Counted from the first letter of the whole stretch, positions 934 to 54,129 are shown. The stretch is 60,692 nucleotides of DNA, filler included, from Basidiobolus ranarum (GCA_040143965.1; 4 parts of 4 records of this genome joined end to end with filler, not necessarily neighbours in it), one strand, 5' to 3'. Numbers and translations are program-made. Notes: generated from the sequence alone by a model not told the origin.

Positions 934-2921
934 ATGGTAAGTTTTCAACGATAAACTCAAATACCAGCACACTATCTACTTTTGTACAAACCATTTGTGG
1001 ACATACATTTCTACCTTACAGTATCCTAATTTCTTGAACCTAATGGAATTTTTTAATTCAGTACCAACCGGAAGATTCTCCTGACAGTGCTGACCTCGCA
1101 GCCGCTTATGAACGTGAGGCTTTAGCTCTTGAACGTGAAGCTTCACAGCAACATGATATATCAGCGTATGAAGATCATGGGGGAATTGCTGTTCAACATC
1201 ATGTTCTTAGTCATTCTCCTAGTATGCACCACAATAATGAAGTTGCCCATGCAGTTATGCATGGTCACATTAAGCATGAAGGCCATGAAATTTCTGTAAG
1301 TTAATACTACTACGCTTCTGAAGAAGCTTCATATACTAAAAGAAAATCTATCCTTGGATAGATTCACCCGGATGATTTCTCGACCATGAACCCTTCTATT
1401 CTCGCCAGCTTAGACACCAACTTGCAAACCTTAGCTGGCCTCGTTAGTATGCCACCATCTGCCAACAATTTATCGTCAGTTCATTCGGGAGTGGCCACAT
1501 CTATCGTCACTAATTCGATAGTCCCTTGTAAGAGAAAAGACCGCGAACGTTGTGCTTGGACACCCGAAGAAGACAATCTCCTTAGATTGGCTGTTCAACT
1601 TTATGGTGATAAAACCGAGAAATGGGCAAAGATTGCCGCTTGTGTCCCTGGTCGCACGAACAAAAATTGTCGTAAAAGATGGTTTCATTCGTTAGATCCT
1701 AGTTTACGTAAAGGTGCATGGACACCTGAGGAGGATGAGTTGCTCAGACAAGGTGTCGAGCGGTATCAAGGCCAGTGGAGCAAAATCGCTGAAGCCATAC
1801 CAGGGCGTACTGATGATCAATGTGCCAAGCGTTGGAGAGAAAGTTTAGATCCTTCAATAGATAGAGCCGAATGGTCTCCTGAAGAAGATGGACTTTTGCT
1901 TGAAAGATATGAAGAGTTAGGAAGTCAGTGGCAAAAGATATCCCAGTTTTTTCCAGGACGACCTGGTTTACACTGCCGAAATCGGTGGAGAAAAATCCAA
2001 CGTAGTATGAATCAAAAAAGTCGCGAAAAAGAAAAGCTCACTCAAGCATTAATGGCGCCTGTTGAAAGTAAATTAACACATGATATACTTCATACACCAG
2101 AATCGATTGTTGGTGCTGATTTTTCAGTTATTGGCCATCCGCACACGTTGTTGCATCAGTCGGAACTTCAATTGGGAGACCATGAAGGTCAGCCTTATGG
2201 CTGTGGTATTGACAACTGTATAGCTAGCTTTGGAGATTCAAGTGGTCTCTTTTATCATATGAAAGTGTCGCATCCTCGAATTGACTCATCTCTAAGGCCA
2301 TACAGATGCGGTTTATTTGGATGCAACAAAAAATACAAAAATATCAATGGTTTGACGTATCATATCAAGCATGCCAAGAACACATCTGGTCATGGTAGTT
2401 CAAGTATTCATGGCGGATTAGATCAAATAGAAAAGCCATATAGATGTCCGCATGAAGGGTGCGATAAGAGTTATCGCAACCCCAATGGTCTACAGTATCA
2501 CCAGAATCATGCTCATGGACCCCAAGAAGACGAGATGGAAAAGCCATTTATTTGCTCAGTCGAAGGCTGCAATAAAACCTATATGAATCCCAATGGGCTA
2601 GCTTATCATTTTCGACATGGCCATCCAGAGGTAATTGTAGATCCATACTGCTCCCTTATGACACGATAACTGATAAGATTTATTGTGTAGCTTCTTGACT
2701 CTAGCTATTTTGCCGTTGCTGATACAGAGCTAACGCCTGAACATGAACAAGTGCACCATCAAGAGGGGCATATTCATTCTGAACATACAATGCAACACGA
2801 TTTTCAAACTCACGAGCACCTGCAGCATCATGAACATACAGAGCACCTTTCACACCATCATGATGAGCTACAGGAGCATCATGGACATGAGCTTACGGAA
2901 GAATTATCACCACTACGCTAG
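934..2921 (+). CDS. Bas1-like three-repeat Myb transcription factor with four Sfp1-type C2H2 zinc fingers and His-rich termini
   Basis: Exons 934-936 (ATG only), 1062-1295, 1362-2630, 2691-2921, with GT-AG introns in frame. Myb repeats WTPEED..W..IA..GRT...CRKRW and RPGLHCRNRWRKI; fingers such as KPYRCPHEGCDKSYRNPNGLQYHQNHAH. Confidence 0.9.
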
Positions 2922-3748: not shown

Positions 3749-4835
3749 CTACGTATGGAAATACCAGGTGATTACATGACGACTAACATTGAATCCAAAC
3801 AGGGATAAAACGAACAAAACAATGAAGATAGGCAGTGGATAGAGGAAGATTTCGGTATGGGTAAGGAACGGGAGAGCTGGAGAAGATGAAGAGTGAATTA
3901 ATCGCCAGATTATGCCTGGATTGGCGTCAGATAACATACCTTTGTACCCAAGAAACGTCAAATAGTTGTAATATGAGAATGCTACTAGATACATTAGATT
4001 GCCGATGAAAAGGGATATCCAGGAGTCAGTATTAAGAATCGGAAAGAAAAAGAACTGTAAAACATATAGAATAAAGAATATTGGTAGAAACGAGTTGCAG
4101 TGGATGTCGAAGGCATAGTTCCATTCTATGGATTGGTCCACGGCGTATATGGATTGATGCTTGAGAAATCGATTGGCAAATATCCTAGTGTCCACTGTTA
4201 GTATGCTCCAAGCTATATCAAACCGATGAAAATATTTACCGGCATAAAACGGATATAACAAGTCCCACGGCAATAAAGTCAATACACACAATGCGAAGAA
4301 TTAGCTTGACAATTGCTGTGAAGCTACGACCATAACTTATCCCGTAAGCTGCTCCCGAGACTGCAAGTATGAAAAATAAAAGTATTTAGCTTGGACACGA
4401 TAACAAAAGAATTTAAGCGCTTCTAACTTACAAGTCAGGAAAATAGAAAGCAGTAAAATAAATGCAGGATCTTTGCGAGCCCATCTGTTGGTGGTTTCTA
4501 TTAGAAACAAAATGAAGTTGAGGATGACTCTATGTTAAAAGTGGGCCAACTAAGTCTTACGCTTATGCTGATAGATGCTACGATAGCTACAAGTGAAACC
4601 TTTAAGTTATCCATTTAAAGTGGAACGAGACGGTGTTGTTAGTGACTTACACTCTTTGCGGAGCAATACATAGATAAATCATTTGACGTAGCGCGGCTGA
4701 GAAATCCATATCCCTGAAACTGAACACATCTCCTAGCATTCGATTAGATTGTCTTCTTGGACTAAAGTTCTGAACAGGAATTTGCTTGCGATGCTTTCCG
4801 TTCAAAGATGTACTAGCACGATAGGTCGGTAACAT
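3749..4835 (-). CDS. UNC-50/Gmh1 family Golgi membrane protein (multi-exon)
   Basis: MDFSAALRQMIYLCIAPQRV, NRWARKDPAF and EWNYAFDIHCNSF motifs; hydrophobic helices; GT-AG introns. Confidence 0.9.
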
Positions 4836-7234: not shown

Positions 7235-8728
7235 TTATAAGATTGCATTCAGAACATCAATTAGTTGATCTACCTCGTCAAGAGTATTGTAATGAACCAT
7301 GGAGACTCGCACCACACCTCCATATAACCCTAACTGATCTTCCACCAGTCTCTTAGCATACATATGTCCCCAACGAATGCCAATCTTTTGTGATTTATCC
7401 ACAAGTGCAACTACTTGTTCACTATCAATATCCTTCACAATAAAGCTAACGGTGGGAACTCGCAATTCTGGTTTAGAATCAGGCACTCCAATGATCCTGA
7501 CGGTTTCTTTCGAGTTCAAGAAGTCGATTAATCTTTTGGTTAAAACGCTCTCGTGCTCAGTGATCTTCTGGAAAGCTCGGTTGAGGTTTTCCTGAGTGAT
7601 GGTATTTGAAAGATCTCCGTCCGCTCCGAGTTTGTTGAAATACTCCACTACAGCACCGACAGAATATGTTAGTTCGTAATTCAGGTTGCCTGGCTGAAAT
7701 TTGTATGGATAATCATTCTCCGCAATGAAATAATGATTTAACGAGCCTAGCTCCTGCATGCAGGATTTACGTGAGTAAAGTACTGATATATGAGGCCCGT
7801 AGACTTTGTACCAACTAAACACATAGTAATCAACTTGAAATTCTTGCACATTGACACGCCTAAAAGAGTATGTTATGGTGAGTGAATTAATTTCAAAAAG
7901 GAATTCCCTTAGCCATTACCTGTGTGGACTATACGCAACACCATCTACACAAAGCTCTGCTCCAGGTATTTTGTGAACCATCTCTGCAATCTTCTTTACG
8001 TCGTTGATAGTTCCCAATATATTGGAGCAGTGGGTAACGGCAACCAATCGAGTGTTACTGTTAAGAAGGCCTTCTAAATCGTTCAAGTCAAGTAGCAGTG
8101 TGTCTGGGTTGGCACTCCAATAATTAACCTTTAGACCTTTACGTTCGGCCATCCTGACGAAGGAACCAATATTTGCTAACGAAAGTAAACAAAAATTCAC
8201 TTGATAAAAGGGCATTGATAGGCTGTTTTCATTCAAATAACCTTTTACCTTCATGATCAGTATTTGTGACAATGATTTCTTGACCGGGTTTTAAAGTACA
8301 CTCCATCGCTTTCGATAGATTCGCAAGAAGCTGAGTAGTAGAAGAGCCAAAAATGCATTCCGAAGGCTCCTTTGCATTCATAAATAACTGTGCCGCGCAT
8401 ACTCCCTCATCTACTCTTTTTGAAGCGCTAATGCTAGCCGGATATGTGGCACCCTGATATGTTGTTGAATTGAGAATGGGATTTTGAATGATACAAGCCT
8501 CTATGACTTACCAACTGAACGTTTGTATGTAGGAGATAGTCGGATATCCTTTGCGCAACTGCTTCTAATACCTTTAAAAGTATGTTGGTTAGAACCTTGA
8601 CAAGTAGTTGATGATCGGTAGGTAGGGTAACGCTTCACCTGAGAACCACCAGCATTCTCGAAGTATACAAAACCATTCGAGAGAGCGGGGAAATGTTTCC
8701 GAACCTCGTTGATATTTAGAGGGTTCAT
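7235..8728 (-). CDS. PLP-dependent aminotransferase class V, cysteine-desulfurase-like (VC1184/UstD-related) protein
   Basis: VRKHFPAL..YFENAGGSQV, THCSNILGTIND, VDGVAYSPHR, FSWYKVYGPH (PLP Lys), VRVSMVHYNT; several short introns. Confidence 0.88.
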
Positions 8729-10054: not shown

Positions 10055-13000
10055 TCAATTCTTGCGATTCCTCAGTCGTGTCTGACGAGCTGGAACCTTG
10101 CTACTCGTAGTATTTTTGGATCTACTGGTAGGTTTCGAAACTTCTGATGCCTTTGTGCGCTTGCGCGTAACAGGTGGAATACTTTCCTCTTCTGGCTCTA
10201 TGGTAGCTTTACGCTTGTTGGTTGTTTTCGTACTCCTTGTATGCTTAGGACTAATATTCTCCTCTTGTTTCTTTCCATACTCGACACTGTTGACAACCTT
10301 TGCTCGAGTAACTTTCTTTTCTACTGGGTTGCTTACATCCAATTGTGAGGTTTCTGGAAGTTGCACCTTCTGTCTCAAACTGGAAACATTCTTGCCGGTG
10401 CTAATACTCTTTTTGGAGTTATTACGTTTCGACATGCGACTGGACTGTAAAGATGTATCTTCTATAACTTTAGCTCTGCGTAAGCTTCGTTTAGTAGATT
10501 TTTCTTCAGCGTCCATGTCTTTGACCTGATCATCTTTGACATCGGCCTGTACAGGAGAGATTTTATCATTGGATGAATGCTTGGGAGCACGAGTAGAGCG
10601 AGTTTTACTACTCTTAGTTTCATCAGACTTGGATTTGGCTACATGACTAACGCGACTAGCTCCACGGGTAATGATCCTATCTTCCTCCGCAGCGTTCTTC
10701 TCCGACTGACCAGCCTGTGATACAGCTTCGATGGTAGTCGGGCGCTTACTACGAAGTTCTCTGGGTTCGAATTCAACTTGTGCTAAATCAACGGGTTCCA
10801 ATTGTTCAGTCCGAGGAATATCCTTGATGACACCTACGAGTCTGCCACCACGTGTTTCAAGTGTTTTCCTCGATTTAGCAGCGTTGAGTACTGGCTCTTT
10901 ACCGCTAGTTGCTTGAGTGCGAGTACGACGACTAGCAATTTTTGATGAAGGTTCTATCATATCCTCAGATTTTTCTAGAGTAGATTCTTTTTCTATGATG
11001 TCGTGTGTATTTTTCATAATTGGTTTTCTGACTTTCTTACTAGCACGGGTTGTAGATTGAAGTGCACGAACAGCATCCTCACCTTCATCTCCTTTGTCTT
11101 TCTTCGAGCGTGTTTTGACCTTCTCATCGATATGAGTTTCTGAGATCACTTCGTTTGATTCATCTATTGTTCGCTTGGTACGACGAGTACGTGGTTTAGG
11201 CTGCTCGCTAGGATCTGTAATAGCTGTGTCGATATCTACGTTTTCAATTACAGGTTTAAGTTCCTGTTTAATACTTTGACGAGTAGAACGAGGACGTATA
11301 GGTGTATCAATTTCTTCTGAGATGGCTTCCAGGGCAGTCTCTGTGATTTTTGCTGCTGTAGTTGCTCGCGTGCTAGATCTGGTAGGGCGACTGGTTGCAA
11401 GGCTTTCGTCATCGAGTTCTGGCTTCTCCTTCTTGGAACGTGTAGCCCTTATAGATGATCTAGTGACTCTGGTTTCAACTTGAATGGTCTTTGAAATTGA
11501 TTTGGAAGCTGAACGAGTCATACGTTTAGTAGTGGTATAGGGCTCCTCTTCCGGACTCTGACTGTTGGTATCACCTGACTCCTCTAACCGGCTTTCTCGA
11601 CGCTTTGGTGTCCTTTCGATATCAATTGGAATCATGGTAGAATCAATATCTTCATTTACCTTAGCTTCATGGTTCACTTCTGGTTTTGCTCTATCGTCAT
11701 TAGAAGAGTTATTCTCTCGATCGCTATCGACTAAATCACCATGAAGTCCTTCGGCAGAATTGTCACTAATAGCATTACCATCAGGACTTTCGTTGTCTCC
11801 AACTTGTCCTTTTGGCTGCTCTTCTTGCTCTAATATACTAGCCTCATAGATGGGATCTACATCATTTGACTTAGTTGGCGAAGTGGTTGCATTGTTCAAT
11901 CCCATATCGGTAGATTTTTCATTGACCAATTCACTGGTATTGGGTTTTGGTGAAGTCTTTGATTTCGAAGGAGAACTCAAGTATTCGGATAACGCGGTAG
12001 AATAGCTAGATGGAGTCATTCCACGAATGGGTGTACGAGTTGATCTGGAAGCGAGGGGCGATTCAGGAAGATCATCTTCATTGTCAGATTGAACCGGTGT
12101 AGATAAATGAGGTTCGGATAAGATGTTGGCTATTGCTTCATCTTCTACCATGCTCTTGAGATCTAGCTGCTTGGGATCATTCTTCTCTAGGGTACCCAGA
12201 TCTATAGCAAGTTCTTCGGAATCATTCATAGATTGGACTGTTGTAAGGGTCTCTTCAATATAGTCGGATGATAGAGATTTTCGATTGTTTGTGAGAGGTG
12301 ATGGTGTGGCAAGAAGATCACCCATAGCTTCAACTTGACAAATGCTTTCAACAGAACGACTAGTTAAGTCCAGAGATTTACGTCTGGTTGGCGTGGTGCT
12401 CTCAAACACTATAGTAGAGGACAAGGGATGCTTGGCTGTAGATGTGGCCTTTTTACCGGATTGTGGCAGACTAGACATATTCTCGTGAGCAAGATCCACA
12501 TTTGTGGTGGTTGAATTTGAATCTGAAGTGTTTGCTGATTCAGATGAGGTAATAATATTGCTGCATCCACCGTTAGTAGACTGATCCCGCACATCGGCAG
12601 CATGAGCAATATCAGGTTTCGTGTCAGAGCTTAGAGATCCGTTGCTGGTATGGCTGATTTGCTTGCTGTGAGGGCCCACTTGAGATCTTCCGGAATCCAT
12701 ATTAGATGTAGTATCCAAAGTATTCAAACTATTCGACAAATTAGCTATTGATTCTTCACTTGAGGTGACTACATTGAGCAGGGTAGAAGCTAATTGGAGA
12801 GAGTCATTGGTTTCTTCATTTGTATCTAAAGTAATAGGACTGCTCTCTTTGGCACGGAAATGTTTCAAAACATTTTTTAGTAGTGAAGAGGAAGGGGTTG
12901 CCGGTTTAGAAGCAGAAAAGCCCTTTCTAGGGGTATTTTGCCCAGAAGCAGCCTGCCTTCCCTTCTTCAATGGCGAATTGGGAGGAAGTGCTTTGTCAAA

Positions 13001-14483
13001 GATCTCTGGGCTCAAATCAGGGCCAAACCTTACTCGCCTAATAGATGCCACACTAGTAGATCCTAGAGAACTTCCAAATACATCTCTTAATCTACTTTGA
13101 GATAATGCAGGTGTGCCGGTAGGGGTTTTCCGTCCACGCTTCAGTGGTGAATTTGGTGGAAGAGCTTTATCAAAGATTTCCGGACTCAAATTGGGCCCAA
13201 AAGTTACCTTGCGACGAGAAGCCTCTTTCTCTTTTGTGTCACTGGGGTCCGAGGCTACCTCATCCAATAAATTTGTCGAGGTGAAGTTTCCAAGGAGATT
13301 AGTATGATCAAGCAAAGAAGATCTTCGCCTGGATGAACGGCGACTAGGAGTACTTGGCTGCACGACTGGCGTGGTTTCTATCGACTTTCGCTTTTTAGGA
13401 CTAGAAGCATTGGGGAGAAATAGTGATTTGGGCAATTTGGGGGAGGTGGCTTCAGTGACTGAATTGGTACTAGAAGAGTGGAGTCCAGACCCTACACTTT
13501 CAACTTCGGCAATATGACTTGTCAAGTTTTGGGCATTAGTACCATGTTCAGTACTATGAGAGCTGTCCTCTGAGGAACTTAACTCCAATTTCTGCTTGAC
13601 AATTGAAGAAACATTTTCTTCACTTTGAAAATGCTTGGAGGGACTTTGAGCTTCACTAGGGACGTTGCTAGTTGTATCAGGAATGTTGCTGATATCTTGC
13701 AACTTTACTTCACACGTTTCATTGGCCTCTTGTGCTTGTTTGACCTCAATGTGATGCTTAACTTCACATTGTTTCTCCTCCCCACTCTCATGTGCAACTT
13801 TAATCTTTTTGGCAGCCTGGGTATCTCGATCCTTTGATCCAACTTTTTGATTACGAGATCCAATGACGGGTTTGGCCCCTTTCTTCAAAGATCCGGCCAG
13901 TGAAGCCCCTGTACTCGTTTCGAAAGGTCTAGTAGAGGATGATTTAGATGAGGGTACTTTTGAAGTGACTTTGGGTTTTGCTATTGGACGTGTGAGTTTG
14001 GGGGGATGTGGAGTAGCTCTGGGCTTACTCTCGTTAGATAGTGTGTACTCAAAACGAAAAGTTCTATCATGAATTGCAATAGTATCTTTATCTTTAAGAG
14101 CTCTACGGTCTTGCTTTCCAATACTTTGACCATTAATCATGGTACCATTTTCGCTGAAATTCACAAGGGTAGCCTATTATGCAAAATAAAAGTCAGCTTC
14201 TGTCATTCATCATCATAGCTTTATAACGAATATAAAAACTAACCTGACCCTCTTTTTCGAAGGAAATTTTACATTGAACATCAGAAATTTGTGGCAAATA
14301 TATACGGACATCACAAGAAAGTTGTCTACAGAAAGCAAAAATCCAAGTAAGTTGATGAAATTTGCTACTTTGAAGTACGGACGATACCTACTTTCCGATG
14401 AGGAATTCTTTTTTGTTGATAGGGAAAGTCTTGAAATCTCCGCCGACTCGACGAGTAACTATGAAGCTTCCATAGTATCCCAT
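10055..14483 (-). CDS. Ki-67-like protein (~1430 aa): N-terminal FHA domain, two PP1-binding modules, long disordered S/T/P-rich region, basic C-terminus
   Basis: Exons 14483-14392, 14325-14244, 14173-10055 give MGYYGSFIVTRRVGGDFKTFPINKKEFLIGKQLSCDVRIYLPQISDVQCKI..LVNFSENGTMING..LKDKDTIAIHDRTFRFEY; two copies of (K/R)VxFGPxLSPEIFDKALPPNSPLKxG. Confidence 0.85.
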
Positions 14484-15136: not shown

Positions 15137-15236
15137 NNNNNNNNNNNNNNNNNNNNNNNNNNNNNNNNNNNNNNNNNNNNTTAATTAATTAANNNNNNNN
15201 NNNNNNNNNNNNNNNNNNNNNNNNNNNNNNNNNNNN
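15137..15236. other. Artificial contig spacer
   Basis: 44 N + TTAATTAATTAA (stops in all six frames) + 44 N. Confidence 0.97.
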
Positions 15237-18967: not shown

Positions 18968-19661
18968 TTACACTTCTACCTGGAACTTCTTCCCTTGAAG
19001 AACTTTGGTGAAGTAGACGTAGAAGAAGTCTAGGTAGAGCAATGTTTGAACAGTTCCAGCAATCCAAGCAATAGGACTAACATAACCCTCATAATGATAT
19101 CTATATATCCAATTTAAGAGATAAAGACCTCGATATCCACCTAAAGCAAAGAGATAATGGGTAGTAATGGTCTCAGCTTCACCTGTCTTACTAAGCTGAT
19201 AGAGTTGGGGAAGAATAGCCACGGCTTCCAGATATATGGAAAAGGTCCATAATACCTCTAGCACAGTAAATTCTTCGTGGAATATCAAGGCGAGAACTCC
19301 AGCGGTAACCAATAATATCTCAATTCGAAAGGTATCTTGTGAAGAATCATAGGTCGCTTGAAGTTTCACCCTCATCAAGTAGAGTACATATAAAGCAGAT
19401 CCAATGAAAAATAGCTTCATAAGGGTATTATACAAGGAGATGAAATGTACAAAGAGATCAAGGTAGCGTGTAATAAACACTATGGCGTAGAGAAGTTGAC
19501 TCTTGAACGAAATCCCTACAAAGAAACATTTAGTCTTCGGTTTGCAGAGCAAAAGGACGGTTAGACTCACCTGAAACGGAATTAGAGGACATCATCTTAA
19601 GCATCAAGATACATATAGATGCTAGATGCATCAAATCTCCACAGAATCTGAAAAGGTTCAT
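18968..19661 (-). CDS. ERD2: ER lumen protein-retaining (HDEL/KDEL) receptor
   Basis: [60 protein letters not shown]; one intron near 19516-19570. Confidence 0.96.
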
Positions 19662-27550: not shown

Positions 27551-29077
27551 TTATACATGAATAACTTGTAGTGCATTAGTATGCCCTACACCTGGCTTGC
27601 AGCCTTGAAGTACAATGACAGTGTCGCCTTGCTTTAGTATCTCCAAATCAACTGCTTGTTCCACGGCCCATTGGATACGCTCATCAACGTCTTGCTGCCA
27701 TCTGTTCCCATTTGCTTTTTCTTCACGAGTAAGAGGGCGTTTAGGAAAAACGAACGGATAACAGCCACGATATAAGTGGATTTGACGAGCAGTTTGTGCC
27801 TCGCGAGTAATGGTTAGGATAGGGCAGTGTGGGCGATACTTGGCAACAAGTCGAGCAGAGTTGCCTGATGTAGACAAAACAATAATGGCTTTGGCATCAG
27901 ATTCATAGGCTGCACTGACTGCAGAGCTAGCAACAGTCTCACTAGTGTCAATGGGTGTATCATGAAGGGCGCGCATCTCATTGAACAATGATTGATATGA
28001 GATCACTGACTCTGCAAGTGCAGCTACGTGTGATTGCATCTCAACAGCTTGAATGGGGAATGTTCCCTTGGCAGTCTCTCCTGACAACATCACGCAGTCA
28101 GCTCCGTCAAGAATGGCATTGGCAACATCTGATACTTCCGCACGAGTAGGACGTGGGTTGTATGTCATCGATTCCAACATTTGTGTGGCGCATATCACCG
28201 GCTTGCCTGCTAAGTTACACTTGGCAATCATTGCCTTTTGAGCAATAAACACTCGAGAAACTGGAATCTCAATCCCAAGATCTCCACGAGCAATCATCAC
28301 TCCATCAGTTTCCAGTAGAATATCATCAAAGTTCTCAACTCCTTGGAATGATTCGATCTTTGCGATGATCTTGATGTTCTTTCCTTCCTCTCCAAGAACC
28401 TTGCGAATCTGACGAATATCCCCGCCTGAGCGAATGAACGATGCAAATACCATATCCACTCCTTGCTCAACTCCGAATCTCAAATCATTGATATCCTTCT
28501 CTGATAGAGCAGGAAGGTCAACGTCGGTCTTGGGAAGATTGACTCCTTTGCGGGAGGCGAGCTTACCACTGTTCATGGCACGAACTCTGACAGCATCCTC
28601 GAGTACCTCAACAACCTTAAACGACATAATACCATCATCGATAAATATGGTCTTGCCAACCTCGATAACCTTTGGCAAGTTCTTGTAGTCGACATATATC
28701 ACCTCACCAGTACCAGCTTCTTTGTATTGCTCGTCAGTGGAGAAAGTCATTTCGTGACCAGTCTTGAACTCTACTTCTTGGTCATTTTGCATAAGACCAG
28801 TACGAATTTCAGGGCCCTTGGTGTCCAAGGCAATAGCAACAGGTCTACCATGCAACTCCTCCATAGATTTGCGAGTGTTTGAGATCACTGAAGCGTGATA
28901 ATCGTAGGAACCATGAGAGAAGTTCATACGAACAATATTCATACCAGCCTTTCTCAAAGCATTTATCATTGGGACGGTGTTAGTTTTGGGACCAATTGTA
29001 CAAATAATTGAAGATTTACGAAGGGTGGGCTCAACATCAACATTGAAACCTGAAAGCCAACCAAGTTCACTATTCAT
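27551..29077 (-). CDS. CDC19: Pyruvate kinase (intronless, complete)
   Basis: [63 protein letters not shown]. Confidence 0.98.
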
Positions 29078-29997
29078 TTTGAGTTATAATTGTAATGTAA
29101 AGCAGAGTAGTAAAGTAACTAAATATTTTAAAGAAATAGTACAGCGTTAAAAGAAAAAGTAAGAAATATTGTTATGTTACCTATTAAATACCAAGTCACA
29201 GAATCAAGTGACAGATAATCATAAATATATAGATCGAGTAATTTACAATCAATATCAATCTCATAGTATAGATGGCGTAGATAGCACAAGATGTCACCCC
29301 GCACTATAATTCTCCTTCCCCATAAATCAGCAAAAAAATATTCAGTTTTGTCAAAACATATCCCCCTCGGCAGGGGCAAGCGATACAAATGCTATATACA
29401 TCGTGCCAAATGGGGAATCCTATCCCAATACAGAACTGAGCATCGAATGAAGGTTAAATTGGTTGGATATCACGTTCCATTTCCCTTTGCCGATAACCAT
29501 CCAATTGTGACGCAATCTCGAATCAATAATGGAAACTGGGTGAGATCCGATAAGGCGATGGCTAATCAGTAGATCTACTGTAACTCCTTACTTGCATGTA
29601 AAGCATTGTTACCCAAGATCGACGTGCACCATATTCCGCTTTAGCCATTGAGTGGAATTAGGGTAGAATTTGGGTTATACACATATATCTTTCCATCTAT
29701 GTGGCGCACACTTATCAACATCACATGAATTTCGTTTTACTCCCATATTGACTGTGGCTGAATAGAATCAAGTCTTGTGGCAACACATCAATGCACCCCT
29801 CAGCACATGAAAGAATATTCGAATATCAAAGTATTTATTATGCTCCATATAAGCGGCCAGTCAAGCATACAAGGGTAGCTCGACTATTTTAGGTCGATAA
29901 GAATTGTTCTATATTTTTGACAAGTGTGAAATTCTGATAAATATTACAAATTAATATGGGCTAAGGGTATTTACTTATATCATCGAGATATAAAATT

Positions 29998-30331: not shown

Positions 30332-30431
30332 NNNNNNNNNNNNNNNNNNNNNNNNNNNNNNNNNNNNNNNNNNNNTTAATTAATTAANNNNNNNNNNNNN
30401 NNNNNNNNNNNNNNNNNNNNNNNNNNNNNNN
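30332..30431. other. Artificial contig spacer
   Basis: 44 N + TTAATTAATTAA + 44 N. Confidence 0.97.
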
Positions 30432-32924
30432 CGAACACGCAGAGCGGAGATTCTCGGCTTCTGTGGGGGAGGTGTTAAGTAGCAACGACATCGTTCGAGC
30501 GGCACACATCTCTGAAGGTCAATATTTACTATCATCAAATACAATTGATCTGCGGATATTAATCTTGCCTGACTTTAGATCTCTCGATCAATGGTGACTT
30601 AGAGGAGGATATCTTCTCAGGTGATACGAGGAGGTGGTCTTGTCCATCCGGGAAACTTCGATCTTGTGATGATCTCTTGGCAGAAAAGCGAGCTTATGTA
30701 GGACTCCTAAGGCACCAGTCAGTTAAAAGATCTGATATCTTTGGAGTCAATAAGTTGCCATCCACACCCAGAGACAAATCACCCAATGTCAAAATTCATA
30801 CCATATTTCAAAACAAAATCTCACTCAACTACTTTCGGGAGTTCTGTTTGAAAGTGCATGCGTTGGAAAACTTGCACTTCTGGATAGAAGTGGAGGTTTA
30901 CAGATGTACAAAGTCCTCTTTAGTCTCGGTCATTGCAGATTACCTGTACAAGGTATATATCGCTCAAGATGGACCATTACGAATCAACATACCAGAAGAA
31001 ATTAGAAAAACTATCCCCATACCCAGGCTCTCGCCAGAGTCCCTTCCCAATATCAATATATTTGATGAGGCACAAGAGTATGTTTTTGATCTCTTAGTTC
31101 AGTATATAATCCCACAATTTGAGGCTAGTGACCTTTACACCAAACTCGTACGTGATAGAACTACAGGTAAGGGGATTTGTTTAGGACAATTTCAAGAATT
31201 CTTTTAATCAAAGTTTCACTCTCTCAGACTCTGCAAACTTTGAACTGGCTTACATGGGTGAACCTGTTACCAAATGGTTACAGTTTGATATAGGTACGGT
31301 GGCTAACGTAATGGATATTATTAGTAAATACCGAGAAAGTAAGCTCAACATGAGATACTCGCTGCAAGAACGTGAGAATATACTTGAGCAAGTTACGAAT
31401 CAAATGTTTTCACCTATTACGATGTCTTCATACTATACCACACCACGATACCCGGCTTCAGAGCACAGCGGTAAAAAGATGATGTTGAAGAAGAAGCTGG
31501 CCAAACTTCTAGGGCAAAGATCCATGGAGAAGCAAACTATCCAGCAATTTATAGACGAATCGGTATTGACATGCACGTCTTCACTCATTTCAACAAAAGA
31601 AAAGGACCATATTCCGGCCGATAATGACAAAAACACATTGAAAAAGAAAAAGATTGAAAAATTGGAGAAGTTAGAGGGATTCTTTGGGAAAAAACTCTCT
31701 AATAGCCAACTAGCACATCAGAATTTAGTAAACTCCGTGGAGGAACCAAAGTTCAGTGATATAATCGAACCACCTGGATCCCTCACTCTATGCCCCTTGG
31801 TTACTTATAATGATCTCTCTCCAGAGGAGCGTCGTCTCTTAACGAAACGTACACGAAAACTTAAACTTTTATTTGGTGAGCCAATGGATGAGCAATTGGT
31901 CTCTAAATCATTAACAAATCCAATTATAGCTCAGAAACTACTAACTGATGATTCTGAGAAGAGTTTGTTTTACAATTTTGAATCGCATGTTACAGAATCT
32001 GAAGATTTTGAAATCCATCCAAATGAAAAAAGGTTGATGTCAAGGCGCAATTCCAAGGAAATCAAACGAAAAAAGCTAGGAAAACTTTACCAACTCTTGG
32101 GGGTATATCCCTCATCAAATGAAATTGAAAAAGGCACTCCTCCAGTTGGTGACGTTAAGGAAACGTTGATACACCGGAACGCAAAAACTGCACCTCCTGA
32201 GATTCGTAAATTACAGTTAAAACGAGCCAACAAGCTTGAGAAAGTATTCGGTCAACATCCGCCCAAGGAATTCATCACAGTAAACAAAGAAACCGAGCTG
32301 CCCTTTCAAAAACGCTCCTCTGTTGTGTCTAATCTGTTGGACGCTGAAGATTCAGTTGAGGATATGGTACATTATCTCGAGATTCTGTCAGCAATGAATG
32401 ATGAGTCAACAGACAACTCTGGCGTATTATCCTCAGATAACTTGGATGATGAGAGTAACGAAGAAATATCCGAAGATAATACAAGTCAGGATAGCATTCT
32501 TGAAACAAACAAATCAACTCGTCAAAAAAAACTCTCAAAATTACGCCGGTTCTTTGGTAACGATCTTGGTTTAGAATCATTAATCGCGCAAAATATTCTT
32601 CTTCGCCGAGAACTCGTGGCTGAAAGCATATACGATATAGGTGAAGATAGCGAGATATATGGACAGCATCTAAACGCTTTCAGGTTTGGTAGAGATGAAG
32701 CGTCTGAAATGTATATCCGTAATGCAATGAAAAATGATTTAGAGCAATTGCGCCGGGAAGTTCAAGAACTACATCGGTTGAATTCCCATAATTCTTCTCA
32801 AAACAGTTTTATGAAACGCCTAACTCGAACAACCACCATTTCTCGTCCGAATACTTTACTATCACGACATTCAATAGCAAGCACAGATAGCAAAAACTCT
32901 GACTTAAAGTACAAGGAAGGATAG
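30432..32924 (+). CDS. 5'-truncated RGS-domain protein with repeated KLxx(F/L)(F/L)G motifs and C-terminal coiled coil
   Basis: YFREFCLKVHALENLHFWIEVEVY..LYKVYI..GPLRINI..IFDEAQEYVFDLL..IPQFEASDLY; introns near 30518-30578 and 31167-31228. Confidence 0.85.
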
Positions 32925-35468: not shown

Positions 35469-37761
35469 TGTATTTCACCGTATTAGCAATCTATAGTAAG
35501 AAATGATTGTTGCTGGCAGTACCTCGCATTCAACACCAAACGCTAAAGGAGTGGTCTATTTAGCATCACCTGGATAAGCCTTCCTTTCTAAACCGCGGCT
35601 ATAAAGCTGTGGTCGCCAAGGAATTAGCTACATGTTGGGAGAAGCACAAAAGTAGGATAGGCTGAATAATTTTTGAATACAGTCTTGTCTAAATATGTAG
35701 TTATGTGATCATGGCTCTATTTGCCTCACAATGAAGATACTATACATTTCATAATTGTTCTAGTTTCTGTCATTATTGGAACATTCGTTACCTACACTCC
35801 AGGGGATAGCTTAAAGGTCGATCTTGACTGAATGCTCATTCTCTATATTATTTCAACATTCTTGTCTACTCTCTGCGTTACTACTAGCATTTTTCTTAGC
35901 TTTAATCCAGCTATTTTTTATGATTTTTGTGCGCTCATCCTGATAGTTTCTTCACCTATCGTGCAACCATCTCTTGATAGAGGAATACCAGACATTTGCA
36001 TACTGCCCCTGGAAGACACAGTGCATACAAGTTGTGAGCAATGTTGTAAGCTACCATATCTCTCAAAACTACCTCATTTCTAAATTACTTGAGATGATTC
36101 TTATGCGGCAAGATCTCCATTTATCTGGCATATAACATGAGGTTGACCCTTAATGTACAATTCTCATTCTAGCTAGAGACTGTTTATCTCAGTAGAATTA
36201 GTTTTATATTCGTAAACTTTGCTATTTCTACAAATATTTGTACGTTTTGTCTCCAGGATGCTGACTGCTTATAGTTGCTTTAGAGTTACGGAAATTAAGT
36301 GATATGTGGTGTTGATTCATCTACACGTGCATGCTTTGTTGACTTGAATGCACTAACATCTCAATTTGTGAACTATGATTCAGACATCCATGCTATAAAC
36401 AGAAGAGTCTCATTAATGCAAATTTCGATGATACTACGAAACTTCAATCCGCTGAACTCACCTGTCTGCAACATGTGTATAATCAGGATGTCAGTATATT
36501 AATTTGTAACACTAACTTCTTGCGCAACTCTCAATATTAACAACAGCCATTTATTGAGCCTTGAAGAAGGGATTTTTGTATAACACCCTGGCCACGAATA
36601 ACAAGGGGCAAACCAGTTTATTAGAAAGTCAATATTTTCGGTGGGGAAAGCAGAGAAACATTTATAGCCAAATATTAAACTCAGCTCCAGTCAGGGAAAT
36701 TCTTAAGCCTACATGCACCAGTCTCTCAACAATCTCTGAGTCATTAATAGCGAGATATGGCAGTTATCGTAGCCTTGTAATACTCTTTGCAACCTATACC
36801 AGTATCCACCGCCTAACAGATTTAGTACATCGTTGTCATTGTATTGTGAGAAACTGGAGTAAATCTAAAGATTGAGATTTGGTCTGCAATTCATTTAAAT
36901 ACCCTCGCTTTGTTGTGTGATAGTCGGTCACATCACACACCTCGAGTGCAGTCTTGAACATAGTCTGAGCATCGTTCTACTTTCCCCTCAATCGACACCC
37001 TATAATATATAGACACTACTACTATTCAGTCATTGATTCGACGGATATCTCAATGCTAACAGAATATATGAATTATTACTGGCTGGGTTTGATTCAATTG
37101 ATGGTAGCTTAGTTATCTGGTTTCAACTCGGTAGTCGGAAGCATCCTCAATATAGGTACGTGGGTACCCTACCAAGAGTCGCTTGAATTGTGCAGTCATT
37201 AACGCATATGAAGGCCTGTATGATAACGCCTCACATTCACTAGATTAGAGTTCAATCAAATACCTCAAGCTTTGCACAGATCTTGCAGAGCACGCGAGTC
37301 TCAATGTACCCCTAAACGATATCAACCTCGAAACTATTCAAATATTAGCTTGAAAGGGGTTGCTTTCACGAAATTAATTATGAGATGAATGCAATTTAAG
37401 CACCGTTGATTCATTGGCCAGCAACTCCATCAAAAGAGTGCTCCAATTGTTTATGGTAATCTATACAGTTCAAATCAAAGACTGGCATGTTTATTTGGGT
37501 TCAGAATTAGGGCTCTGATTTTATCTCACTTGTACAAAGTATACAATTGTGACACAGTCTTCTCAACTGTACATGGCTTTTCTAATCTGGTTGGTCGACA
37601 TTAGTAGTAAACTCGCATTTTCTCCGCAAACCCTTTGTCTATAGTTTACGTATCAAACTTCAACTTCAACCTTAACCGTTCTAGTATATTAACAACCAGA
37701 CAAGTACTGTACTGAGCTAAAGGTTGATACTCTAAAGATCCTTAAAGTAATAGAACAAAAT

Positions 37762-40700
37762 ATGCCTAAATGGCAGCCACTTCCTCGAGTCGCCTACGGG
37801 ATAGCTATCTTCCCCTTTTTATTATCGACTCCTAGCATAGCTGACGATCCACAAGATGACTGTAGAGGCAGCCAGCCACCTTTATCCAATCCTACATCTC
37901 TTCAAGCGACATATCTAGTCAACTTAGAAGTGGGTGATAGCGTTTATGCATTTGAACAATTAGAAGGTTGGTATAAAGGCTACGTAATAACGGCATTTCC
38001 TCCAAATTCACCACCTAGATGTGGTGTATTTCCCGCGAATCACGTTCATATCCGCTCCTACCTACTTGTAGAACAGCAGGAATTATCTTTTGGGAGTGGT
38101 AAAACTCTCGGTGTTTCGTCTCCAAAGATATCACCGCTACTACGATCGAATTCTGAATGTACTTACAAAAACGTTGCTAACTTGAATGTTTCCAGAATCA
38201 CAAACCGTATTCGTCCAATAAGTCTACAGGAAGAATCTGTCGAAGAGGTTCGTCTATCGCCACCCTCAGCTTCTCGTATGACCGCTTATACGACGACAGG
38301 TGGATTCTCTGAACCATTGGCTGATTTTATCGCTTCCGTCTTGAAAGAATGGTGCTCGTTTTTGCAAATATATTTGAAAAAACGCGAGTATGTATTATTC
38401 AGCCAAGTAAAATATCTTATGGCTACCCTTTTCAAAGGCCGCAGGCAGCTTCTTTCACAAACCTTATCGCTAGAAGATCTGAACAAGCTTCGAGTAGAAC
38501 TAATTCACACGATATTATCTGGTAACAAATTGCAGGGTCTGGATTCTATCGTTCTTCACAAAGAAAAAGGATTTCCAATTAATGAAGCCGATTTCTCTTT
38601 GACAACACTCTACAGAAATCATGTTGAGCTTGCTGGCAATGATAATAATGGAGTTGAGAGCACTCGGTTAACAAGTCCCAACCAATCTCCGCTCGGGCTT
38701 AACTCAGCTCTTGCTCGCAAAAAATTAAGCAAATCGACAGCTGATACCTTCTCCAATTTATACCACCTCTTCTTTGACTTGAAAGCTTTTGTTGCTTCGA
38801 TCTGCTCAACCGGAGAATATACTGAGCTTCAATTCTGTTTGTTCAACAAAACCACTTCCAAGATTATTACTGAGGAATTTCTGATTGTTCTCACATCCCA
38901 AGGGATGCCTCGCGACTCCAACAGGATTGGAAGACTGCATACTTTATTCACAGATTTATCTTACAAAGATATTAGTGATCAAATATACTTGATATGCAGA
39001 ATAGTTCGTGTTGGTAGAACTTTATTGTTGGAGAAATCTAAGGATGGAATTGATTTCCCATCCTCCTCATCAAATGACATCGCGTATCGGGGAAATTCAA
39101 CGAATAGCAAGATAAGCCCGGAGCCAATAAGTTATAGAAGGCCGTTTGGGTGTGCTGTTCTTGCAGTTAGTGATATACTTCAGGCGAATGATCAAGTTGG
39201 CACATTACGTGAGTCTGTTGCGAAGATATTTATTCCGTTGAATGATAGCACATTTTCTACTTTACACGAGAGTATTATAAACCAGACCGGAGAATACGAA
39301 AAATCCTCAAGAGCCGAGAACATTTGCGTTTCATTCCGGGTATTTCAGGGACAAGCACAGTCTTTGATAAGAGAGCATCCAACTCTCCTATTCGACATTC
39401 CCCTGACGCCCAAACTGGGTTTTCCTGATGTAATTCTTCCTGGTGACAATCGAAACGCGATGCATTTAACTATAAGTTGTGGCGAATTTCAGCAAGGCCG
39501 CAGAACAACAGCTAAGAACATCCAAGTTAAGGCAGAAGTACGATTGAACACCGGGAATGGAGCAGCCCTAAATAATGCAATATGTCGTGGGTCTGGAGAA
39601 GCCAATGTAACCGAATATGAATCTGTGATATTCTACCATTCAAACAATCCTAGATGGGACGAGTCTATTAAAATTGAGGTAACTCCGGATATATTCAAGA
39701 ATGCCCATATTTTTTTCACATTCCGACATTGCTCAAGCAAAGGGCAATCCGGGTCGACCATATCTATTGGCAAAGACAAATCCTCTGACAATAATATATT
39801 TGCTTTCGCCTTTTTGCCACTTTCTTTAGATAATCATCACACTATAGTGTCAGATGATATACATTCTCTTACATTATACAAATATGATTCTAAAACTGTT
39901 GCATCAACTTCATACTTGACACGAAGTACACATGTGCCAAGATCCCATATACTTTCGTCATTTGATAGTCTTGATTTAATCAAGAATTCTAATGCATCGT
40001 CTGGACTCTCGGCGCTAAAAGACTCCTTTACTGTGAAAACATTCTTATGCTCAACCAAGCTAACTCACAGCGAAGCATTGGTCAATCTCTTACATTGGAA
40101 AGAGGCATTGCTTACTCGGCACGATATGCGCTCCATATTGAAGAATTTCACCTTTATAGGTGAATTAGAGATTGTGAAATTTCTACAGGATATATTTGAC
40201 GTATTATTCGAACTGTTGGGAGCCCCTCCTTCTTCATTTCAACATGGGAATACTTCTACCAAGCAAAGATCTCACCAACGTCAACCTTCTATTTCCGGCA
40301 CTGATCCCACACTAGACGATTTAGTATTTGCTGCTTTAGTGTTCGTATTAAATATAGTTTCTGATCGACGCTTTACTAATTTCCGACCAGTGCTTGATAT
40401 GTATATCGAAAACCATTTCTCTTCACCTCGTGCAGCTCAGCATCTAATTACTGCAATGAGAAAGTTACTCTCTGATCCAACGGATTCGAGTAAAGCAATG
40501 GGTCTCCGCTCCAGTATAAAAGCATGGGAATATCTATTCAAGCTAGTCGTCAAGTCATGGGGTATTCAAAAAGCTGAAGAAAAAGGGAAAATAATTACCG
40601 ACAGTTCCGGATCTTTATCGCCGACAATTGCTGAGAATACAGAAGACAGCGAAACTAAATTTAAAGCTAGCCTGTGGGGGCTTTTTGAAGATATCAATAG

Positions 40701-43700
40701 GCTGATGTCTCTTACTGATCCACTCTCAGTTCTTGGAACGCAAACCATTGCTCTACAACATTATCATACGATTTTCGATGACTTAGTATCTCGCTTTCCT
40801 AATAACGAACTTACAGATATATCCATTTCATTCGTCAATTCTGTTGCTAGCTTTAGAAAAGGGAACCTTGCACATCACCGGCTTCAACTAATATATCAAT
40901 TGGTTCATGGAGTACTATTTGATTGCCCAGAATCTCGGCATTTGCTAGTCAAGGCTACAGTTGGATGGGTTGAAGAATACTTAAAGCAGCCGATGACTGA
41001 TTATGCGGATTCAGGACAATGGAAAGAGATACTTCGTTTAAGCAATCTAGTTGTGACTGAAATGCTAGGGAAAATCCATTCTATACATCATAAGGTTCAG
41101 CATGGCACCGATCCTAGTGTCAGTGAGAAAAAACATGAGGATGTCGATATTGAGACTATTTTGAGTATATTGCCCCTCTTTATGCAAGCTTATCATAGAC
41201 TTCGTCAGGCATTAGCAATCTCTGAGCATTCCGGTTTCAGTCCTTCCAAGCATAATTCTGGGTTAAGCGGTCCACTATCACCAATTTCATCTTCTCCTGA
41301 CCTTTTAGGCACTGAAATGTCCGAGAGGTACTCCAACGCGTTCGGTGAAACTGCGTCTATGATTATGACCCTCATATCTTTAACGTCGACAAACCAACTC
41401 GAACGCTTCTTTCAACGATTCATGAATAAGGCAGAGTCAGTTGAAGGACTTCAAAACATAATATTGCTACTCGAGATTTTTCATTCTATTCTATCTGAGA
41501 GTGCATTTCCAAAACATTGGTTGAACTTGACTGTCCTTTCGTTAAGGATGGTGTCAAAGGTATTGATTCCTCTTGGCACTGTTCTCAGGAAAAATCTAGC
41601 TAATGCTTCTCGGATATCTGAGCTTCTAACCAATGTTTGGATTAGATTTTATACTGTTCTGATATTTATTCTGGCAAACAAACGACTCAAGGTTGAGACG
41701 CTCAATCCTCAAATCCAAAGTGCCACAGTTTATTTGCTCCAAGACGTTAGAACCCAAGGTGCTGACTTGCTTATATCTATGTGGCTTTCTTTTGAGACAT
41801 TCAAGGCTAAAATAAGTCACGAAAAATATCGGGAAATCTCACTTACTCTTCTGGGTCCGATCTTAGATTTGAATCTCTCACTGCATGATGGTCTTCGCAG
41901 ATGCGCGTTAAATATGTTGTTCTCTATCATGCTCTCAGAATTCGAGATTATGAATGATTTCAAGCACATAGAAGTAGAGTGCTTTAATCGATTTGAGCAC
42001 CTTGTTATGACGGAAACCAAAGGAGATTTAACTACCTACAATTTGTTCATTCAAGGGCTTGTATCTAAAACCGAGAAAGAAGTACGTGAACAATCTTTAA
42101 ACCTCTCTCTGGTGAAGTTGATAGATTCCATCGACAAATTCCTCGAATTGTTGTTGAACGTGCGTGATCTACCTAACGAAGATGAATACGAAGATGAGCG
42201 CATTATGGGTACCATGAAGCTACTCAAGTTCATTAAAATCATGAATCAGGATGATATTTATATCAAATATGTCCACCAATTAGTCGACATGCATCTTCGA
42301 AGCCAGAATTTTGTTGAAGCCGGGATTACTCTCAAACTTCATGCTAATCTGTTAAGCTGGTCTTTAGAAAGTGGCTTAGAAACTGTAGAAGGTCTCAGTC
42401 TTCCCTCTCAAACTTCATTTGAGAGAAAGGAGCTTTTACTACTGAAGGTGCTCCGATACTACGATGAAGGTCAAGCTTGGGAACATGGAGTAGAGACTTG
42501 CAAAGAATTGGCATATCAATACGAACACACTTTGTTCAATTATGATAAACTTTCGGCCATTCTACGTACACAAGCTCAACTTTATGAGAATATATTGCAC
42601 AAAGAGCGTTACTATAGTGAGTATTTTAGAGTCGGATTTTACGGAAAAGGGTTTCCGACTAGCATCCGTAATAAGCAATACATATATCGTGGCTTGACTT
42701 GGGAAAAAATCAGCGCCTTTTGCGATAGAATTCAAAACAAACATCCCTCCGCTCGCCTTCTCAATTCCAATGGAGTTCCACCTGAATCTATACTTAACTC
42801 AAATGGGCAATATCTACAAATTACTGCCGTTACCCCCGAGCCTGACTTGACTCATGCTGCACTTCAACGATTAGATACTGTCCCAGGGCCTATTCGAGAA
42901 TACTATGAAGCCAATGAAGTAAACACATTTAGCTTCTCAAGGCCTGTAAAGAAATTACCTTCCGAGAGAACAGTATCTTCCAGAAATAGTACTCTAATAA
43001 GCAATAAGACGACCTCCCATGAGGGGCATATTGTACCACCTAAAAATACAGACGCTTTGAACGAGTTTTTATTGCTGTGGACGGAAAAAACATTCTTCAT
43101 TACTGAATTTAAGTTTCCATCTTTACTTCGTCGTGCAGAAGTTGTATCTATGATCATAGAGGAACATTCACCAATAGAGAATGCCGTGGCTGCAATGAAA
43201 AGCAAAACTAAAGAGCTATCTGCTCTAGAGAAGAAGTATCAAACCTATGTTGGCACAGATACTTCCAAAATCAATAGCAATCCCTTAGCTATGGCCTTGA
43301 ATGGAGCCATCGACGCACCCGTCAATGGAGGTGTATCAATGTATAAACAAGCTTTCTTAACAGACGAATTTATCAAGCAAAACCCTGACAAGGAACAAAC
43401 CGTGAACCAACTACTTTCGCTCATCGATGAACAGGTAACACCTTTACCAAAGAGACTTGTTAACTATCGATTACAAACATAGTAATATCTTACTTTTAGA
43501 TATTGGTAATCCAGCGCTGCCTTGCGATTCATAATCGCATTGCGCAAACAGAAATGAGACCACTTCATGAGAATCTAGTTATACGTAAGAATTTCCTTTT
43601 AACTCATTATATATAGTGCTTTACTAACTGAGTGTAATAGTTTTCCGCAAAAATTTTGCTGAGGAACTAGTTCGAATCTCTATTAGTAAGCCCTCCATTG

Positions 43701-45518: not shown

Positions 45519-45618
45519 NNNNNNNNNNNNNNNNNNNNNNNNNNNNNNNNNNNNNNNNNNNNTTAATTAATTAANNNNNNNNNNNNNNNNNNNNNNNNNN
45601 NNNNNNNNNNNNNNNNNN
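45519..45618. other. Artificial contig spacer
   Basis: 44 N + TTAATTAATTAA + 44 N. Confidence 0.97.

Positions 45619-51181: not shown

Positions 51182-54129
<2,948 letters not shown>

Follow-up and report, generated by a model that had tools for sequence, protein, structure and literature searches.

Does a fungal relative of Ki-67 dock protein phosphatase 1 (PP1) at one site or at two, and, if at two, are both closed by the same kinase? The question is raised by a stretch of DNA from Basidiobolus ranarum (GCA_040143965.1), 60,692 nucleotides long and called the window in what follows, in which a gene on the minus strand (10055..14483) encodes a Ki-67-like protein with two tandem copies of a PP1-docking module. 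A preliminary description of this DNA had claimed that both copies are maintained by selection and that one of them, with the docking motif KVTF, is regulated by Aurora kinase while the other, with RVRF, is not. We therefore analyzed the two modules, the gene that carries them and their homologs by computational means. The reading that we prefer is that both modules dock PP1, that cyclin-dependent kinase (CDK) sets the timing, and that copy 1 alone is gated by Aurora; by analogy with the human proteins we consider it, as a whole, reasonably probable.

Two PP1-docking modules in tandem

Copy 1 (13133..13216, minus strand; residues 378-405) reads RRKVTFGPNLSPEIFDKALPPNSPLKRG, and its RVxF motif is K380-V-T382-F383 (13210-13199, minus strand), with T382 encoded by ACT at 13204-13202. 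It is followed by a basic Ser/Thr-rich linker of 31 residues (406-436; 13040..13132, minus strand) that contains TP sites (RKTPTGTP), and then by copy 2 (12959..13039, minus strand; residues 437-463), which reads RRVRFGPDLSPEIFDKALPPNSPLKKG and whose RVxF motif, R438-V-R440-F441, lies on the same strand with R440 encoded by AGG at 13030-13028. The two copies are spaced 58 codons apart and have in common a 17-residue core, LSPEIFDKALPPNSPLK, at 13189-13139 and 13015-12965, which is identical in protein. The duplication of the module at 13216-13133 and 13039-12959, as first described, was borne out by Pfam PP1_bind (PF15276), which scored 87.2-87.3 bits over two matched stretches, against a curated cut-off of 27, and by ungapped alignment to peptides of solved structure. 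Specifically, copy 1 aligns without gaps to the PP1-bound crystal peptides 5J28_C (Ki-67, E 8e-8), 5INB_B and 5IOH_B (both RepoMan/CDCA2). Our own hidden Markov model (HMM) of the module gave 59.4 bits for copy 1 and 58.5 bits for copy 2. The pattern [RK]-x(0,1)-[VI]-{P}-[FW] matched RKVTF (379-383) and RRVRF (437-441), and elsewhere in the protein only KISF, inside the FHA domain.

The spacing from RVxF to the FD stretch in copy 1 is that of the crystallized peptides, and copy 2 has the spacing of copy 1. Both copies read FDKALPPNSPLK(R/K)G, fitting the published KiR-SLiM sequence FDxxLP(P/A)N(T/S)PL(R/K)(R/K)G. Both also have Ser-Pro at the equivalents of RepoMan S400 and T412, in agreement with the earlier view that CDK-type SP sites are kept in the two copies. 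The third CDK site is offset by one residue in copy 1 and absent at that place in copy 2. Judged from these features of the sequence, both copies are full Ki-67/RepoMan PP1-binding modules.

The copies differ at the x position of RVxF. An Aurora-type site is a Ser/Thr preceded by basic residues at -2/-3. This is the context in copy 1, where the x residue is Thr and K and R occupy -2 and -3 (R379-K380-V381-T382-F383); the x residue of copy 2 is Arg (R440). Because only copy 1 offers a Thr in an Aurora context, only copy 1 could be shut by Aurora.

Age and selection of the duplication

At the DNA level, the copies form a 78-nt direct repeat with 77% identity and a spacing of 174 nt, and they differ at 22 of 81 bases. 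A recount of the protein-identical core gave the same figure as the preliminary description, with exactly 9 of its 17 codons differing, each by one silent change. By the Nei-Gojobori method, the core has 9 silent differences in 11.67 silent sites (pS 0.77) and 0 replacements in 39.33 sites (pN 0), and the 27-codon module has 14.5 silent differences in 19.5 sites (pS 0.74) and 7.5 replacements in 61.5 sites (pN 0.12). When 9 random substitutions were placed on the core, the protein was left unchanged in 0, 0 and 1 of 200,000 trials (kappa 1, 2 and 4, respectively). The saturation of silent sites in the core, the lack of any replacement and the random-placement trials together indicate that both copies are under purifying selection, as had been proposed. 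Since only about 12-20 silent sites are at hand, the age of the repeat can be expressed only as silent sites near saturation.

The flanks of one copy do not resemble those of the other (20 and 22 as local BLOSUM62 scores), and the linker does not resemble the tail after copy 2. Because the copies have diverged and their flanks are unalike, an allelic or assembly duplication is excluded, and with silent sites saturated the pair is not a recent slip either, which was also the initial view. Taken together, these data leave very little doubt that the repeat is real, old and confined to the motif, and that selection has acted on both copies.

As to its origin, the two copies are closest to each other, with 23 of 27 residues identical; none of the 171 further modules that were extracted exceeds 21 of 27 with either. 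G-P after RVxF is common to both copies, and D-K-A is common to them and to Mortierella-type modules. The mutual closeness, the G-P and the D-K-A fit a duplication within the fungal lineage. The bird Ki-67 module shares 20-21 of 27 residues with the Basidiobolus copies, and the module is thus highly constrained.

The host gene and its family

The gene comprises three exons (14483-14392, 14325-14244 and 14173-10055, minus strand), whose splice sites were read off the sequence, with the stop at 10057-10055 and a product of 1430 residues. Two short exons lie 5′ of a long frame and are joined to it by GT-AG introns, giving a complete Ki-67-like gene; the single open frame (10055-14140, minus strand; 1361 residues) spans both PP1-docking copies. 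The joined product of the predicted exons equals in length the protein on record (P0001), which has 1430 residues and both copies, lies on a contig of 15136 bases, matches the window at 100% over the queried stretch and bears the NCBI name 'antigen identified by monoclonal antibody Ki-67 [Basidiobolus ranarum]'.

Near the N-terminus lies an FHA domain (14072..14402, minus strand; residues 28-92) that spans both introns and was detected by Pfam FHA at E 7.8e-12. The closest solved structures are those of the human Ki-67 FHA domain, 2AFF_A and 1R21_A (E 5e-13), followed by CHFR at 2e-3, and by Pfam and best PDB matches the domain is thus of the Ki-67 type. The modules, at residues 378-463 downstream of the FHA domain, lie in a very basic stretch (residues 377-500; pI 11.9 on the charge map). 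Next come an acidic Ser/Thr-rich middle (11648..12847, minus strand; residues 501-900), with an isoelectric point (pI) of 4.37 and a net charge of -37, and a basic C-terminal region (10058..11647, minus strand; residues 901-1430), with a pI of 10.03 and a net charge of +34. The whole protein contains 31 S/T-P sites. Ki-67 repeats (PF08065, KI67R) gave no match in the protein by Pfam at E up to 0.001. With its Ki-67-type FHA domain, PP1-docking region, acidic, presumably disordered middle and basic, putatively chromatin-binding tail, the product most likely represents the Ki-67/bridgin family in Basidiobolus ranarum.

Within the basic tail, short motifs of the form T-R-(S/Q/R)-(S/T)-x-(R/K) recur at residues 962, 989, 1022 and 1054, 27-33 residues apart, and may be what is left of a repeat that has degenerated.

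Human Ki-67 (MKI67; PP1 domain 496-536, 5J28) resembles the Basidiobolus protein in having an N-terminal FHA domain with a gap-free PP1 module downstream, and in its long Ser/Thr-rich remainder with S/T-P sites and a basic tail. Its x residue is a Ser/Thr in an Aurora-type context, as in copy 1, whereas copy 2 differs by its Arg. The human protein has one module in 3256 residues, compared with two in tandem in the 1430 residues of the Basidiobolus protein, which is without KI67R repeats, and its FHA domain has GR and SxxH where that of Basidiobolus has GK and SxxQ.

Another parallel in layout is bridgin (Bgi1) of Cryptococcus neoformans, described in PMC7794384 as a fungal Ki-67-like kinetochore linker, with Ki-67 named as its metazoan homolog. 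According to that text, bridgin consists of an FHA domain, a PP1 docking site, an unstructured domain (pI 4.65) and a basic domain (pI 11.20), for the last of which the basic region of Ki-67 can substitute; a table there lists PP1 among the proteins that co-purify with bridgin. Compared by this published description only, bridgin is likewise fungal, has the same order of parts and is of similar length (1295 versus 1430 residues). [quoted passage not shown] By analogy with the basic parts of bridgin and Ki-67, the basic C-terminal region of the Basidiobolus protein is likely a chromatin/DNA-binding tail.

RepoMan/CDCA2 (5INB, 5IOH) has the same module and spacing, with CDK-type SP/TP at the S400 and T412 equivalents, but is without an FHA domain. 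We considered and rejected the possibility that the Basidiobolus protein is itself a RepoMan/CDCA2, given its FHA domain and since the CDCA2-type N-terminal block RRRSTIGVRGSPE is not in P0001; a block of this type is visible in the CDCA2-like proteins P0004, P0005, P0007, P0016, P0018, P0025 and P0072.

Among fungal sequences, the proteins of Entomortierella chlamydospora (P0133), Mortierella sp. AD032 (P0134) and Podochytrium sp. JEL0797 (P0122) carry FHA and PP1_bind by precomputed Pfam and have the same database name. By the same precomputed Pfam, they too are without Ki-67 repeats. All three have G-P after RVxF, as in both Basidiobolus copies, and P0133 also has the D-K-A of the FD stretch. 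They differ in having one module each by our HMM, compared with two in Basidiobolus, and in keeping GR and SxxH in the FHA domain.

Copy number and the x residue across homologs

An exhaustive HMMER search returned 102 matches with E no higher than 0.001, among them the Basidiobolus protein and a single false positive. The latter (P0003; 3365 residues, a bacterial He_PIG Ig-repeat protein) matched at E 5e-40 through 23 stretches against query residues 31-78, the Ser/Thr-rich linker, and was rejected as the product of repeats and composition. The one locus returned by a metagenome scan (L001) was likewise set aside as a spurious bacterial contig matched via a short peptide pattern. Atlas look-ups returned only chordate PP1_bind clusters, with scores of 0.88, below the 0.9 line of the tool. 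For P0004-P0103, the labels 'CDCA2-like', 'fish-like' and 'invertebrate-like' were assigned from sequence and domain content unless a protein is named.

Of the 164 proteins to which our module HMM was applied, 141 contained a single module, 22 contained two and 1 contained none; this set is no fair sample of copy number, as many of its members are 80-residue bird fragments, too short for two modules. Both copies scored at least 28.9 bits in 15 of the 22 two-module proteins. By Pfam, run on 31 proteins, FHA and PP1_bind occurred together in 9, and two Pfam stretches were found in the Basidiobolus protein only. In the survey of copy number that had been suggested at the outset, two modules were thus seen in 22 of 164 proteins, and one in each of the named fungal homologs. 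The companion statement that human Ki-67 and RepoMan each carry a single module holds for the canonical human proteins but not throughout their relatives, since Crocodylus porosus CDCA2 and Anolis Ki-67 have two.

Across 158 distinct strong modules, 95 had Ser at x, 28 had Thr, 17 had Arg, 5 had Met and 10 had another residue, with 3 modules lacking RVxF; Ser or Thr at x therefore accounts for 123 of the 158.

Several other arrangements with two modules were observed. In Crocodylus porosus CDCA2 (P0002), RVKF is followed by KVTF about 100 residues away, so that one basic-x and one KVTF copy are paired as in Basidiobolus, in reversed order with the basic-x copy first. More generally, in CDCA2/RepoMan-like proteins without FHA (P0002, P0005, P0007 and P0009) the canonical PP1_bind module is preceded, at a distance of about 100 residues, by a second one, and in P0019, P0024, P0042, P0071 and P0094 the upstream copy is weaker or decayed (12.6-22.5 bits). 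For phylogenetic placement we built a maximum-likelihood tree. Of 173 modules extracted, it used the 125 that remained after duplicates and modules with lengths other than 27 residues after anchoring had been dropped. The upstream copies of P0002, P0005, P0007 and P0024 formed one clade (99/96). From its sequence, the CDCA2 upstream module looks like an old duplication, and because these copies form their own clade, that duplication is independent of the Basidiobolus one.

In lizard Ki-67 (P0073, Anolis carolinensis; P0110, Anolis sagrei; also P0022), a weaker second module (KRASFG... or KSVSFG..., 25.9-37.4 bits) lies near residue 167, with the canonical module at 383. In P0008, P0012, P0013 and P0017, KIMF lies close to the N-terminus and is followed 290-510 residues later by SVRF. 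The short proteins P0006 and P0010 have KVTF followed by IRF or VRF about 70-85 residues away; we rejected them as Basidiobolus relatives, as their copies group in the tree with CDCA2-like modules and with the SVRF-type modules of P0008, P0012, P0013 and P0017.

Proposed regulation of PP1 docking and alternative explanations

What two such modules might do can be framed by the biochemistry of the human proteins. In PMC5005033 (Kumar et al. 2016), a 41-residue region of Ki-67 or RepoMan is reported to bind PP1-gamma 1:1, with dissociation constants (KD) of 193 and 133 nM, respectively, through RVxF, PhiPhi and a then-new motif, KiR-SLiM, FDxxLP(P/A)N(T/S)PL(R/K)(R/K)Gx(T/S)P. The same source gives an affinity loss of about five-fold in RepoMan upon removal of KiR-SLiM, and states that Aurora B phosphorylates the x residue (Ki-67 S507 and RepoMan T394, 'canonical Aurora B motifs') and that phosphomimetics at x weaken PP1 binding about 25-30-fold (PMC5005033). 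The starting premise that Aurora B phosphorylation at x of RV[S/T]F hinders PP1 binding is therefore in print for the human proteins. In addition, the RepoMan Cdk1 sites S400, T412 and T419 are described as opposing PP1 binding (Qian et al., PMC4703885).

By extension, we suggest the following sequence of events. The PP1-docking region was tandemly duplicated long ago, and only the module of ~27-30 residues made up of RVxF, PhiPhi and KiR-SLiM has stayed alike. Each copy would bind one PP1 catalytic subunit as in the structures with human Ki-67 and RepoMan peptides; the protein could thus load up to two PP1 per molecule, and on geometry the 31-residue linker would allow both to be held simultaneously. 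Phosphorylation of the SP sites by CDK would bar PP1 loading onto either copy in early mitosis, and loading would be freed as CDK activity drops. T382 of copy 1 could be blocked by Aurora in the manner of Ki-67 S507 and RepoMan T394, and the Arg of copy 2 could not. By analogy, both copies probably bind PP1; that Aurora plays a different role at each is also plausible, although we rate its chances somewhat below even.

A number of observations weigh against this reading. The terminal Gx(T/S)P of KiR-SLiM (RepoMan T419 equivalent) is not found in either copy: copy 1 ends G-R-K-T-P, one residue too long, and copy 2 continues G-R-Q-A-A-S-G-Q-N-T-P, with the motif absent at that place. This is the least conserved end of KiR-SLiM. 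Arg occurs at x in 17 of the 158 modules, so the T/R difference may be neutral, and RVRF is the sole module of some proteins (e.g., P0023 and P0072); Arg at x is hence a common natural state and does not argue for a two-tier switch by design. The x residues of the 22 two-module proteins include T/T, S/S, R/R, M/R and mixed pairs, with no sign that mixed pairs are favored. In the module tree, the two Basidiobolus copies fall in a polytomy and were joined in 0% of 200 bootstrap trees, although they may still have one origin. No other Basidiobolus ortholog was found by word-index, exhaustive HMMER or metagenome searches.

The FHA domain adds a further point on the same side. The canonical phosphothreonine-binding residues of FHA domains are GR and SxxH. 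The Basidiobolus domain has GK and SxxQ instead. GR is present in 12 of 14 aligned homologs, with GK in the other 2 (the Basidiobolus protein and P0014), and the His of SxxH is present in 13 of 14, with Gln in the Basidiobolus protein alone. These two substitutions, Lys for Arg and Gln for His, make at least one family feature atypical, and phosphothreonine binding by this domain may be weakened or altered.

A rival explanation is plain redundancy or avidity, in which both copies bind PP1 and raise its local dose or occupancy, and the Thr/Arg difference at x is neutral with no differential role for Aurora. The variability of x across the family, the RVRF-only single-module proteins P0023 and P0072 and the occurrence of every combination of x residues in two-module proteins are all in line with it, and the CDK-type SP sites common to both copies could alone time PP1 loading. 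Against it, Ser or Thr occupies x in 123 of 158 modules and, according to PMC5005033, forms a working Aurora B switch where studied; moreover, copy 1 retains the basic -2/-3 Aurora context, and the saturated silent sites indicate that T382 has long been kept. On balance we regard redundancy as unlikely, though deserving of serious attention.

It is a good deal less probable that PP1 docks productively at just one of the copies and the other is kept for another partner of the same short motif, as a CDK/Pin1-type SP cluster or as a PP1-buffering pseudo-dock. The terminal Gx(T/S)P, absent in copy 2 and offset in copy 1, would agree with such an arrangement, as would the decaying upstream copy of CDCA2-like proteins (12.6-22.5 bits), from which one copy seems to suffice in those lineages. 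However, the module HMM scores are nearly equal, both copies retain all of RVxF and FDxxLPPN(S)PL(K)(R/K)G at unchanged spacing, and the 17-residue core has 0 replacements despite silent saturation. Furthermore, with loss of the whole KiR-SLiM reported to cost RepoMan only about five-fold (PMC5005033), losing the last two residues should not abolish binding.

Finally, an artefact, whether a mis-assembled or mis-annotated duplication (alleles or paralogs stitched together) or a chance resemblance, might be suspected from the fragmented assembly and a window of four contigs joined by spacers, but is exceedingly improbable, as 22 of 81 bases differ, the 78-nt repeat is only 77% identical and the flanks are unrelated, unlike stitched alleles, while the frame is open through both copies and a Pfam score of 87 bits excludes chance.

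Returning to the preferred reading, in which both modules dock PP1 and copy 1 alone is gated by Aurora, a further elaboration can be envisaged. At other Aurora-gated RVxF docks, a separate phosphatase clears the Aurora mark. In the Basidiobolus protein, the Aurora-insensitive copy 2 might load PP1 first as CDK activity falls; this PP1, ~30-60 residues away, would then clear the phosphate from T382 in cis, and a second PP1 would load. We consider such a self-priming switch quite unlikely. If it did operate, PP1 recruitment would be abrupt and irreversible, and the mixed pairs of basic-x and Ser/Thr-x modules in crocodilian CDCA2 and in P0006/P0010 would be convergent solutions.

Relation to published work

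Both the module and its family are known; the finding is a variant in copy number, in a protein that already bears the name Ki-67 in the database. Ki-67 was long held to be restricted to vertebrates and was extended to fungi only by a preprint of 2026. That preprint (10.64898/2026.06.18.733134), in its available text, describes Ki-67-like proteins in the fungi Malassezia, Mycoemilia and Paramicrosporidium and remarks that, when a loose RVxF pattern is applied, 'some species have two motifs'; Basidiobolus does not occur in that text. KiR-SLiM is described in PMC5005033 as confined to Ki-67 and RepoMan. In the literature covered, which is without most subscription journals, no description of a full PP1 module in tandem came to light; there, a search for Basidiobolus Ki-67 gave only an unrelated clinical paper, a search for PF15276 gave no paper, and a passage met when looking for a second PP1 site in Repo-Man deals with RVxF and PhiPhi within one module. 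What the locus contributes is the complete module, present twice, in an early-diverging fungus. The gain is incremental, as neither the family nor the module and its regulation are new, and relatives with two modules are in public data. The protein nevertheless offers a natural construct with which to ask if the dose of PP1 on each scaffold makes a difference, and what an Aurora-sensitive x adds beyond CDK control.

Other features of the window

The window consists of four separate contigs of about 15.1 kb each, joined by spacers at 15137-15236, 30332-30431 and 45519-45618, each made of two 44-N runs around TTAATTAATTAA. Genes on different segments are thus not neighbors. No PP1 or kinase was seen among the other family-matched open frames of the window, which are as follows. 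The first contig, which also holds the Ki-67/bridgin-like gene, has frames for a Myb and C2H2 zinc-finger protein (1362-2669, plus strand), UNC-50 (3749-4300, minus strand) and a class-V aminotransferase (7235-7915, minus strand). On the other contigs are frames for a KDEL receptor (18968-19591, minus strand), pyruvate kinase (27551-29083, minus strand), an RGS domain protein (30563-31207, plus strand), a DOCK-family exchange factor (37693-43482, plus strand) and a WW-HECT ubiquitin ligase (51623-53236, plus strand).

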